NCBI GenBank assembly: GCA_027623425.1
Contig: JAQBTH010000001.1
Location: 1,485 to 65,484 of the forward strand
DNA: 64,000 nucleotides
Direction of reading: 5' to 3'
Origin: a bacterium
Lineage (GTDB): Bacteria > Margulisbacteria > Marinamargulisbacteria > UBA817 > JAQBTH01
The notes under the pieces were generated by a model, which worked only from the letters and a program-made list of their open reading frames with translations, was not told the origin of the DNA and did not search any database. Shown in pieces: positions 58,144 through 61,374 of the stretch; positions within the stretch are counted from its first letter, which is position 1, and each line of letters begins with the position of its first letter. Both the position numbers and the translations under genes were made by a program.

Positions 58144-59377
58144 ATGGAGTTTGCCATGTTATGCCGCCGAATTGCAGCGTCATCAAACCAACAGACCCGT
58201 TGGGTCATATTAGATAATCTACCCTTTAAGTACGCAAAAGACGTTGAATGGAAGGACGTAAAAAAAACACCCCAAGATGGAAGATCACCATACATCGTCC
58301 CCCTTCCTCACGGGCATGCCTCATTAAAAGCAGCCAAAAACTCGCTACTCGCCACTCACCAAGACTTAGTGGACGTGCTTAAGCTTATTCGAAGCCCTCT
58401 TGAGTATAAATTTGGAGTGGCCTCCGGCAAGAATGATAGCTTAGACTACAAAATAAGCATAAATCCAAACCACGATAAGTCATTTTCAATCCACATCATG
58501 ACAAGCGCAAACACCGTTACGCTGAACTTCCACATGAATTTTGATAAAATGGGACAGCTGGTAGAGGAAATCTACATACAAAACACCATTGATGGCACAA
58601 TTACAGCCTACAAATACCGGCATCATCGAAAAGGATTAGAAACCTCTCTTAGTGATACGCCGAAAATTAAGTTTCCCCCCAAAATTGCATGCATAGAGAT
58701 TGATTTTGGATCCAACCCTGTCGCCTGGATCAACACAACTAAAAATGGTGAGCTGTACTATGAGGGACAAGCGTTATTAGTGGAAGATGCCGCCCCAGAA
58801 CCACATGGAAAAGGACAATTGGTTGTAGCCGACGCCATCACTATTATGGGGGTATTTAGTAACGGAACACTCTCTGAAGGCCATGAATCACTGCGTATTG
58901 ATACCCAAGAAGTAGACCCTTTCTACCAATTGGGCGTGCATAATAAAGCTGGGAATCAAATAGAGGGCAAAGTGTATGCTTACCATGATGCTACTTACCA
59001 TCATGAAATTAGACTGTACCTAGAGAGGTTTTATTCACGTGCACGAAAGACAGCAGGGGATTTCCCCCTTCCTCCCCGCCTTTCCCTTGGAGAGGCAACG
59101 CTTAATTGATTTAGCCGCATATACATGTGGGATGGTGCCACAATTAGTAGGATCAGACACAGAGGTGCTTCATCAACGACTGGCTGTCGCGGAACAACGT
59201 GCAAAGGCAGCAGAGGAGATGCTCGCCCATAACGCAGCGCAACATGAGCCGCTGGCCGAAACACCAAGGGCCGCCGCTAGCATCCGGCACGCCCGAAGCA
59301 GCAGATCGCGCCAGAATCCAATCCCGCACCTGCGCCCTGCAATAAAAAGCCCGCTCCTAAAAAGGAGCGAATCATGA
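58144..59377 (+). pseudogene. Effector-like hypothetical gene (paralog of 60273-60971) carrying a frameshift near 59040-59110; N-terminus MEFAMLCRRIAASS
   Basis: The 321-aa ORF (58144-59109) and the overlapping +1 ORF 59039-59377 together parallel the C-terminus of the 232-aa paralog (…LHRL…AELAH.NA…). Confidence 0.5.
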
Positions 59378-59418
59378 TGAACCGACACATTGCAACATAA
59401 CCAAAGATTATCTTAAAA

Positions 59419-60165
59419 TCACAACTTGAGGGTCATCGACGGCGCTATATCCACGCCACAACTAAACCGTTCTTTTAAACGCAGTGCAATTTCAGGCAAC
59501 ACAACCACTTCTGATTCCTTATGGCCTAAAAGCAACAAACCCATGTGGTTTAACTCCGCAAACACTTCATCGTGGTACCCCATTTCACCGGTAATAAATA
59601 AATCAATATTACGAGCCACCGCTTGGCGAAACAGCCCTTTACCGCTACCCCCACAAAAGGCAATTCGACTGACTGTTTTATGGGCACAATAACCCGCAAC
59701 TCGACCACCCAAAACAGCCTGCAGATCAGACACTTTAGCCGGTTCGGCCAACTCCAACCACTTTCCTATCCCACCATTAAATACCGCCATATTGGTGGGG
59801 TCTAAACCATAACATTTTACCAAACAATCCGTCACACCACCGGGCGCCGCATCCAAATTGGTATGCATCGACCACAAACTGGTTTCCGCATTCAGAAACG
59901 ATTTAATAATACGCCCCATATCCTCACCGGTATTAATACTTTTAAGGGGGGAAAACAGTAACGGATGGTGTGTAATAACCAAGTCATAAAATCCCGTTTC
60001 CACAGTCTCTAAAACTGCCGCATCCACCTCTAAAGCCACTAAAACATTGCTAACAGCCCGCTGCATATTCCCAATTTGCAAGCCCACATTGTCCCAATCG
60101 CACGCCAAATGCGCGGGGGCCCACTCTTCCAAATACTGCGCAATATCCCCAACTAATATACTCAT
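59419..60165 (-). CDS. NIF3-family (YqfO/DUF34) dinuclear-metal-centre protein
   Basis: 248 aa; conserved N-terminal LAxxWDNVGLQIG region and C-terminal metal-binding region. Confidence 0.8.
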   Translation of the reverse strand: MSILVGDIAQYLEEWAPAHLACDWDNVGLQIGNMQRAVSNVLVALEVDAAVLETVETGFYDLVITHHPLLFSPLKSINTGEDMGRIIKSFLNAETSLWSMHTNLDAAPGGVTDCLVKCYGLDPTNMAVFNGGIGKWLELAEPAKVSDLQAVLGGRVAGYCAHKTVSRIAFCGGSGKGLFRQAVARNIDLFITGEMGYHDEVFAELNHMGLLLLGHKESEVVVLPEIALRLKERFSCGVDIAPSMTLKL

Positions 60166-60272
60166 ATCTACAGGATATCACATCTACGAATCCCCATTAA
60201 ATGGCATACGACAAAATTACCGAAAAGTCAGTTTAATTGGACATTTAAATTTTATTAAAATAGTATATAATT

Positions 60273-60971
60273 ATGAGAATCGCGACACCCACCACAGTGC
60301 AATGCCGCCGAATCGCAACACCTGCACCAGCAGCCTCAATAGATATGGATGAGGCGTGTGGATTAACCATCACTGAATCTCGGACGATTACATGGAAAGA
60401 CTTCAGCATTTCTGGACAGTTTAAAGAAGGTGTACCAGACGATAAAGCGCGCCCATTACCTGGGGAAGTATATGTCATCAAAAAGGGTACTACTCTAGTG
60501 GGAATCGGCGAATTAAAACCATCCTTTGATCCTGGCGAAGTCTTTATTTATATTACGGATGCCAGCACGCAAGACGTCCAATATGAACTCGCCATAGGCT
60601 CCTCCTCGCATAGGGGTGATCACGCCGATATATTAAAAGAGCTACTACATAGGCTCGAATCAGCACGCCATAGCACTGATAATGCCAAGCAAGCAGCAAC
60701 CGAACTAGCACACAGTAATGCTGAATGGGAACACGCATTTTACGCGCAAAGAGAGGCTCTAATGGCTAGAGAATCCGAACTCCAAGCCGCAAGAGCAGAG
60801 ATCGCCGCGCTAAAAGAACAAAATTTAGCACTAGCAAAACGCGCATCTCGCCCCCCAACACACACAGAAACAGTTAGTCCGCCACGTACCCCGCCCAACC
60901 ACCGAGCCCCCACACACGCCAGATCCCCACTGGCACAACGTAAATTTCCAATAAGTGATGAGGATAATTAA
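60273..60971 (+). CDS. Effector-like hypothetical protein (232 aa) with N-terminal MRIATPTTVQCRRIATPAP, a central coiled coil and a basic Pro-rich tail
   Basis: ORF; 5' UTR and first codons are homologous to the 58144 gene. Confidence 0.55.
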   Translation: MRIATPTTVQCRRIATPAPAASIDMDEACGLTITESRTITWKDFSISGQFKEGVPDDKARPLPGEVYVIKKGTTLVGIGELKPSFDPGEVFIYITDASTQDVQYELAIGSSSHRGDHADILKELLHRLESARHSTDNAKQAATELAHSNAEWEHAFYAQREALMARESELQAARAEIAALKEQNLALAKRASRPPTHTETVSPPRTPPNHRAPTHARSPLAQRKFPISDEDN

Positions 60972-60972
60972 G

Positions 60973-61374
60973 ATGAATAAACGACTTGCCAATACCACTC
61001 GCGAACGACACTTAACCTTTACTATTGCGACGCATCCACCACGACGAGACACTTACACAGTCGCGCATCTGCGAACTACCAGCGAAAGCGGTTTCGTTAA
61101 ACGATTTGATATTAACAACGCTAGTCCAAAAACCCCACCTAGTAATTGGATGGCGGGTATACCCCCATCAAGGCGCGCCTCCATAGCCGAGTTTTTAGCA
61201 GACTTGGATTGTGCACCTGGCGATGATGATGTGTTTTTACCACCCCAAGATTCTAATGGTTTTGAAATCAGATATTTACCACATAGACACGCAACACGTC
61301 GCACATCAAGCCAAGCTGATATAGATGACATGCTTGCAGAAATAAGAGCGCTACTGGAATCGCCTAGCGTGTAA
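60973..61374 (+). CDS. Hypothetical protein (133 aa; MNKRLANTT…), probably translationally coupled to the upstream gene (ATG 2 nt after its TAA)
   Basis: ORF; the track start 60955 is in the same frame, but 60973 abuts the upstream stop. Confidence 0.45.
   Translation: MNKRLANTTRERHLTFTIATHPPRRDTYTVAHLRTTSESGFVKRFDINNASPKTPPSNWMAGIPPSRRASIAEFLADLDCAPGDDDVFLPPQDSNGFEIRYLPHRHATRRTSSQADIDDMLAEIRALLESPSV

Follow-up and report, generated by a model that had tools for sequence, protein, structure and literature searches.

A short N-terminal motif on fast-evolving orphan proteins of a Marinamargulisbacteria contig: a possible export or targeting tag

Orphan genes with a common N-terminal motif

We analysed a 64-kb stretch of contig JAQBTH010000001.1 (assembly GCA_027623425.1; hereafter, the window), in which several open reading frames (ORFs) with otherwise unrelated bodies start with a short motif of the form [KR]RI[AS]. 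The closest named relatives of the RpoD encoded in the window belong to Candidatus Marinamargulisbacteria / Margulisiibacteriota (69-77% identity). In a scan of genomes with PGK, the best identity among the matches listed was 57%, which gave no taxonomic placement. Judged by its code, the sample may be a Caspian Sea metagenome. An earlier note on this DNA had described four near-identical N-termini and two weaker matches, and had read them as a secretion or targeting signal carried by diverse proteins. The strings that it quoted are all present at the positions it gave; the observation as a whole was confirmed in part, and the interpretation is partly supported. A loose regular expression applied to all six frames of the 64 kb found six sites only, every one at an ORF start.

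The longest carrier, ORF J (14386..16821, + strand; 811 aa, NCBI O3A01_00095), has a strong coding score. Its N-terminus is MMHLHKRIATSSIDGQAVWAIV, it begins MMHLHKRIATSS, and its motif lies at 14401-14418 (AAACGAATTGCGACATCA). It contains a J domain with an HPD motif at about aa 72-142, and the remainder is orphan. The domain matched Pfam DnaJ with E=5.4e-6 and 26.9 bits, slightly below the 27.8-bit cut-off of the family, and DnaJ domains in the PDB with E=3.7e-5; the HHPDKD string is present. Judged from its sequence, the J domain is divergent but real. The second carrier is a small ORF on the minus strand, 41472- (41230..41472; 80 aa), with N-terminus MYKRIATSNSLEPAWTLV, motif string MYKRIATSNS and motif codons at 41466-41449. 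It lies 3' of the transfer-messenger RNA (tmRNA) gene (42274-42661) and of a truncated Big_2 lipoprotein gene. The small ORF scores weakly for coding; the ENA assembly calls it and the NCBI metagenome-assembled genome (MAG) leaves it unannotated, and its status as a gene is uncertain.

Two further carriers flank a housekeeping NIF3/DUF34 gene (59419..60165, - strand) that is itself outside the motif set. ORF 58156 (58156..59109, + strand; 317 aa, or 321 aa from 58144; NCBI O3A01_00325) is an orphan with N-terminus MLCRRIAASSNQQTRWVIL and its motif at 58165-58182 (MLCRRIAASS). The start at 58156 has GGAG 8 nt 5' of the ATG and is used by one public gene call. ORF 60273 (60273..60971, + strand; 232 aa, O3A01_00335), also an orphan, has N-terminus MRIATPTTVQCRRIATPAP, two motif copies (60276-60290 and 60306-60323) and a body made of a coiled coil and a Pro/Arg-rich tail; it is a borderline member of the set. 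The two weaker matches are ORF 22591 (20558..22591, - strand; 677 aa), which starts MYRRISVERS (22585) behind a conserved Shine-Dalgarno sequence and 88 nt 3' of tRNA-Ala, and ORF 60973 (60973..61374, + strand; 133 aa, O3A01_00340), which starts MNKRLANTT (60979). The codon usage of the carriers departs from that of the housekeeping genes.

The bodies of the carriers showed no similarity to each other by BLASTP, in agreement with the earlier description. The two ORFs beside NIF3 had been regarded as paralogs with similar 5' leaders, and neither statement held. BLASTP and tblastx of 58144 versus 60273 gave no significant match, and identity was confined to 12-16 nt at the motif (ATGCCGCCGAAT[T/C]GCA; 58161 versus 60302), about what a 1.3 x 1.2 kb comparison is expected to yield (E=0.08); the two leaders have only AT-richness and the ATG in common. 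In 5.8 billion proteins, ORF 58144 and ORF 60273 matched only themselves. An exhaustive HMMER search of 1.84 billion representatives with ORF J returned only three weak J-domain matches, and pattern scans gave no match for J in genome and metagenome collections or for NIF3 in metagenomes. Sequence searches of the PDB with 58156, 60273 and 22591 were negative, as was Pfam at every carrier N-terminus. A phage or defence origin was considered for the carriers, and PHROG and PADLOC gave no match; convincing island boundary repeats were not found around them either. AlphaFold2 prediction of ORF 58156 without an alignment gave an unusable model (predicted local distance difference test score, pLDDT, of 31.6).

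Other short likenesses occur within the NIF3 cluster, several ORFs of which have weak or negative coding scores. Residues 34-83 of ORF 58156 (58255-58404, PQDGRSPYIVPLPHGHA...LIRSP) resemble residues 86-129 of ORF 60973 (61228-61359, PQDSNGFEIRYLPHRHA...LLESP) at 36% identity (E=0.007-0.02). ORF 59039-59377 (+ strand) is GC-rich (56.6%) and overlaps ORF 58156 at its end. This ORF scores negatively for coding, and the NCBI MAG does not annotate it; it may be non-coding, or else the C-terminal tail of ORF 58156 after a frameshift. Its coiled coil and basic tail are faintly similar to those of ORF 60273. At the sequence level, these patchy likenesses suggest mosaic shuffling among the ORFs of the cluster.

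Statistical assessment of the N-terminal likeness

Of the four N-termini described as near-identical, three share a longer stretch. In ORF J, 41472- and ORF 58156, the likeness extends to about 19 aa (LHKRIATSSIDGQAVWAIV / MYKRIATSN-SLEPAWTLV / LCRRIAASS-NQQTRWVIL), with a summed three-way score of 102. When the N-termini were shuffled 600 times, the top-scoring triple attained this value in 1.7% of the rounds (P=0.017). Among real N-terminal triples this score ranks fourth, after Rossmann-fold starts and signal peptides. ORF 60273 joins through RRIATP only: a hidden Markov model (HMM) of the three sequences gave it 4.3 bits, lower than a spurious ORF. The same HMM gave no support for ORF 60973, whose MNKRLANTT is indistinguishable from chance. 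When HMMs were built leaving out one member at a time, the held-out member always ranked top outside the training set, yet with 7-10 bits, which corresponds to E values of 1e5-1e6 in a database search.

The simple pattern [KR]RI[AS] was then counted at up to five residues from the start codon. Of 61 genes of the window, 4 have it (5 of 62 once the small ORF is counted), versus 6 of the 1137 genes on 1.3 Mb of unrelated bacterial loci that served as controls (Fisher P=1e-3 to 1e-4). The pattern is thus 13-16 times commoner here than in the controls, though still chosen post hoc. Every carrier falls among the ~13 orphans, that is, genes without a family assignment, of the about 62 genes (P=2e-4, likewise post hoc), and no housekeeping gene of the window has the motif. 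A regular expression fitted to the data gave 4 matches versus 0.01 expected, a post hoc and circular test. In the unbiased tests, N-terminal windows of 25-35 aa from about 62 genes were set against internal windows drawn at random and against N-termini with shuffled residues. The support that these tests give to a shared N-terminus is marginal to modest.

Comparison with a sister species

A sister-species contig (L094; Logan SRR29340315), reached by a population-level look-up, allowed orthologues to be compared. Identity to the window was 96% for RpoD, 81% for DnaG, 68% for the small ORF 20156-20464, 40% for ORF 22591 and 32% for ORF J, so that no gene observed here evolves faster than the orphans on either side of DnaG-RpoD. 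In other samples, variant proteins were identical or differed by a single residue.

The orthologue of ORF 22591 (156-2303 on the sister contig) is the only one with a readable start, and the motif had been defined without it. Its N-terminus reads MNYRRIARQS, that of the window's ORF MYRRISVERS. Y-R-R-I-[A/S] persists despite synonymous changes (CGT AGA ATT TCA versus CGT CGA ATA GCG), a conserved Shine-Dalgarno sequence precedes it, and the ~90 residues after the motif barely align. Because the orthologue keeps the motif, ORF 22591 moves from a weak match to a plausible member. As read from the two sequences, the pair favours a constraint on the peptide. For ORF J, the sister contig breaks off 16 codons short of a conserved IVP[F/Y]. 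What can be seen of this orthologue (FGGPEDVAAHNVASLEIVPF; FGGPEDVAAHNVASLE) lacks SSIDGQAVW, and the Trp-containing half of the 19-aa module is therefore not conserved there.

Constraint on the peptide or on the nucleotide sequence

The earlier note had also described similarity of the motif region at the DNA level; most of it follows from the similarity of the peptides. Conserved residues are encoded identically at 10 of 19 positions versus 5.7 expected, a mild excess to which an early impression that the motif Arg is always CGA was reduced. Among the carriers as well as between orthologues, wobble positions vary while the residues remain constant, which argues for a constraint on the peptide and not for an RNA or DNA element. 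Alignment of positions -120 to +40 revealed no conserved upstream block and no shared ribosome-binding site or leader. RNA folds at the motif sites were neither stable nor shared (z-scores of -0.6 to +1.1), and Rfam searches over the window matched tRNAs, the tmRNA and RNase P RNA only, with no match at the motif sites. Taken together, these sequence comparisons point to peptide rather than nucleotide constraint.

An origin of the motif from a tRNA or tmRNA 3' end, as at an attachment (att) site, was also considered. The best non-self match in the window pairs 60311-60329, in the second motif copy of ORF 60273, with the 3'-terminal 19 nt of the tmRNA, from T-loop to CCA, at 15 of 19 positions. 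About 0.2 such matches are expected and the other motif copies match no tRNA, and this origin was rejected.

Comparison with known N-terminal signals

The carrier N-termini are polar and Ser/Thr-rich, with almost no acidic residues in the first 15 positions. Their maximum Kyte-Doolittle hydropathy (over 11 aa) was 0.65-1.9, versus 2.3-3.3 in three genuine signal peptides encoded in the window. Since they have no hydrophobic core, they are not Sec, lipoprotein or twin-arginine translocation (Tat) signals. Sec and lipoprotein signal peptides were rejected because a hydrophobic h-region of about 10-15 residues after the basic n-region is missing. With Tat signal peptides the carriers have in common a basic pair near the N-terminus, which is RR in 58156, 60273 and 22591. 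In J and 41472-, however, the pair is KR, the S/T-R-R-x-F-L-K consensus and the h-region are lacking, and only 60273 loosely matches RR-x-hydrophobic-hydrophobic.

Conserved N-termini on variable proteins are known from several systems. The sequence-variable mosaic (SVM) proteins of phytoplasmas have a conserved N-terminal signal on variable bodies. The likeness lies in a conserved start on highly variable, lineage-specific proteins in unstable genome regions; the SVM signal, however, is of the hydrophobic Sec type, unlike the N-termini described here, and Pfam SVM_signal gave no match. The effectors of Salmonella pathogenicity island 2 (SPI-2) carry a conserved N-terminal translocation domain, WEK(I/M)xxFF. 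These too combine a recognisable N-terminal motif with different C-terminal activities, but the motif is embedded in ~140 aa of demonstrable homology and has no sequence relation to [KR]RI[AS].

Terminal reassortment of type III effectors, the idea to which the earlier note had appealed, is said to have originated as a hypothesis of Stavrinides et al. in 2006. The substrates of type III secretion systems (T3SSs) include families of N-terminal signals common to otherwise unrelated effectors (PMC7406222). These are unrelated, fast-evolving accessory proteins with a similar polar, Ser/Thr-rich N-terminus and no hydrophobic core, to which the carriers, alike over a short stretch, may be comparable. 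In contrast, the T3SS families, and terminal reassortment in its classical form, usually involve clear homology over 50-100 aa; many have a promoter box in common, and their T3SS is known. The carriers are alike over 5-19 aa, and neither upstream DNA nor a promoter is shared. T3SS effector signal families would be the closest known concept, as a functional analogy only.

Interpretation and alternatives

We propose that a short N-terminal tag, M-x(1-4)-[K/R]-R-I-[A/S] followed by a polar, Ser/Thr-rich stretch, may mark a set of lineage-specific, very fast-evolving accessory proteins. The tag would be held by selection on the peptide as the bodies diverge or are unrelated, and it would be read by a sorting or export route, or by another system that reads N-termini, without a hydrophobic signal peptide. 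We give a probability of roughly 40% to a genuine peptide-level tag of this kind, with export or targeting as its likeliest role. That the motif is one functional signal, and one for export or targeting, is inferred; a secretion role would be plausible.

A number of results weigh against the proposed tag. In the unbiased tests on about 62 genes, the best N-terminal pair scored 27, equal to the null median; star (family-size) statistics gave P between 0.013 and 0.17; and the BLOSUM top-3 statistic stood at about the 95th percentile. The three-way match relies on the 80-aa ORF of uncertain reality, and in most members the motif comprises 4-6 residues only, with patterns set after the data had been seen. 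The J orthologue lacks SSIDGQAVW, and at equal spacing would not keep KRIATS either, though the contig ends there. Conservation of the start in a single orthologue pair could reflect a translation-initiation constraint. None of five relatives at a greater distance showed a carrier in the stretches compared, about 97 kb in total. Finally, no T3SS, type IV or type VI secretion system genes are present among the genes of the 64-kb window.

One alternative is that a chance resemblance was over-read: N-termini are biased in composition (basic after Met, rich in Ser, Thr and Ala), a match of 4-6 residues was seen by eye, and the pattern was fitted afterwards. The pair, star and top-3 statistics just given are in keeping with this explanation, as are the fourth rank of the three-way match among real triples, the spurious ORF that outscores ORF 60273 in the HMM, the expected length of the identity between 58161 and 60302, and the J orthologue without the second half of the module. 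Chance accounts less well for the three-way P of 0.017, for the confinement of all carriers to orphans, for the 13-16-fold excess over the control genes, and for an independent orthologue that retains YRRI[A/S] at 40% overall identity with synonymous changes. We regard chance as possible but somewhat unlikely. If it applies, the lasting result is a Marinamargulisbacteria contig whose backbone is interrupted by species-specific orphans, often beside stable RNA genes.

The likeness might also be leftover homology without a signalling role, in which 5' segments were duplicated or recombined within a mosaic, decaying gene pool and the starts were kept by initiation or early-coding constraints. The other patches in common (58156 with 60973, and the tails of 59039 and 60273), the duplication of the motif within ORF 60273, the mildly raised same-codon use and the poor coding scores in the NIF3 cluster would fit such a history. 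However, the motif lies at a variable distance from the start codon (residues 2-6), a common ribosome-binding site or leader is missing, and the window's housekeeping genes are free of the motif. Moreover, if the segments are homologous, all other detectable similarity has been lost, and the keeping of this one patch itself implies selection. We regard leftover homology as distinctly improbable. Least probable of all, and very unlikely in our view, is a nucleotide element in the early coding region with the core CGAATNGCN, for example a translational enhancer, a site bound by a regulator, or the target of a small or antisense RNA; the earlier note had offered an element of this type as its alternative. 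The string CGAATHGCRRCNYC has 8 matches with at most one mismatch versus 1.3 expected, the 18-mers of J and 41472- agree at 16 of 18 positions, and Arg is CGA in five motif copies. These patterns are post hoc, however, and 3 of the 4 additional one-mismatch matches lie away from gene starts, the one checked (52502) being out of frame. Conserved residues differ at the wobble position about half the time, the orthologue pair exchanges AGA/CGA, ATT/ATA and TCA/GCG with the peptide kept, and neither shared structure, shared upstream sequence nor an Rfam match accompanies the motif.

Should the proposed peptide tag be real, it would offer a simple sequence handle for cataloguing accessory or effector-like proteins in a lineage of phylum rank that is uncultivated and functionally almost uncharted, and would indicate a sorting route based on a non-hydrophobic N-terminus. 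Carriers at 32-40% identity against 96% for RpoD show the pattern expected of proteins that engage a host, prey or phage. The broader proposition, that an unrecognised non-hydrophobic signal defines a rapidly evolving, effector-like repertoire, including a J-domain protein, in pelagic Marinamargulisbacteria, is unlikely. Its consequence, if true, would be a route for export or host targeting that has yet to be characterised, together with a lifestyle in association with a host. Marinamargulisbacteria include an intracellular symbiont of placozoans, which are animals (PMC6784892), and this symbiont is the lineage's only characterised member. By analogy, a host association of the present organism is conceivable.

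Genome setting

The RpoD loci of five relatives share a common backbone of fab genes, plsX, L32 and RsmE; DnaG-RpoD; and RsfS, LCP, YqeK, GltP, LptA and TrxB. ORF J, ORF 22591, ORF 1455 and an AbiE pair are missing from this syntenic backbone in the relatives, and are therefore lineage-specific insertions. The comparison covers genes near RpoD, with 41472- and the NIF3-flanking ORFs outside the comparable loci; within this range, J, 22591 and the other orphans near RpoD occupy accessory positions, as the earlier note had supposed for the carriers. Several carriers lie directly 3' of stable RNA genes, ORF 22591 after tRNA-Ala and 41472- after the tmRNA. ORF J is sandwiched between tRNA(CAT) (13865-13941) and the RNase P RNA gene (16857-17193, + strand; bacterial class A, 290 bits), which is immediately 3' of it.

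Within 13865-22754, the DnaG-RpoD block is inverted relative to one of the relatives (L084), and the segment has tRNA(CAT) at one boundary and tRNA-Ala, oppositely oriented, at the other. At these junctions, two other relatives (L090 and L092) carry orphan genes of their own that are unrelated, an arrangement that suggests a recurrent insertion hot spot. At 1455-3194 (+ strand), an orphan 579-aa ORF with a coding score near zero has a metzincin-like HELGHQIGSGH motif; towards the C-terminus come hydrophobic segments and a Ser/Pro-rich tail. The ORF sits as an insertion between a YraN-like gene and RNase HII, where a further relative (L089) has nothing. The AbiEi/AbiEii toxin-antitoxin pair (4015-6074, + strand), whose AbiEii has a WYL domain, is inserted between RNase HII and FabF relative to the same locus. 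GC skew is negative in all 2-kb bins of the window but one, 4001-6000, which corresponds to the AbiE insertion, and reaches a cumulative value of -5.1; AT skew is positive in all bins but one. The left flank of the window contains ATP synthase genes only.

Beside the small carrier 41472-, the Big_2 copy adjoining the tmRNA (41561-41974, - strand) belongs to a family of Big_2-domain surface proteins with further members at 26980-27984 (-) and 33287-34288 (-); this copy is short and seems to be truncated. An inverted repeat with perfect 19-nt arms (42150-42168 / 42258-42276; CCATTGATTTAAAATTTTG / CAAAATTTTAAATCAATGG), which are 89 nt apart, has one arm overlapping the 3' CCA end of the tmRNA gene, and could be a terminator or an insertion scar at ssrA. 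At 43267-46452 (+ strand), two genes encode an ATP-citrate lyase (ATP-grasp and citrate-binding domains; CoA-ligase and citrate-synthase domains), which hints at a reductive tricarboxylic acid cycle or a cytosolic acetyl-CoA supply in this Marinamargulisbacteria contig.

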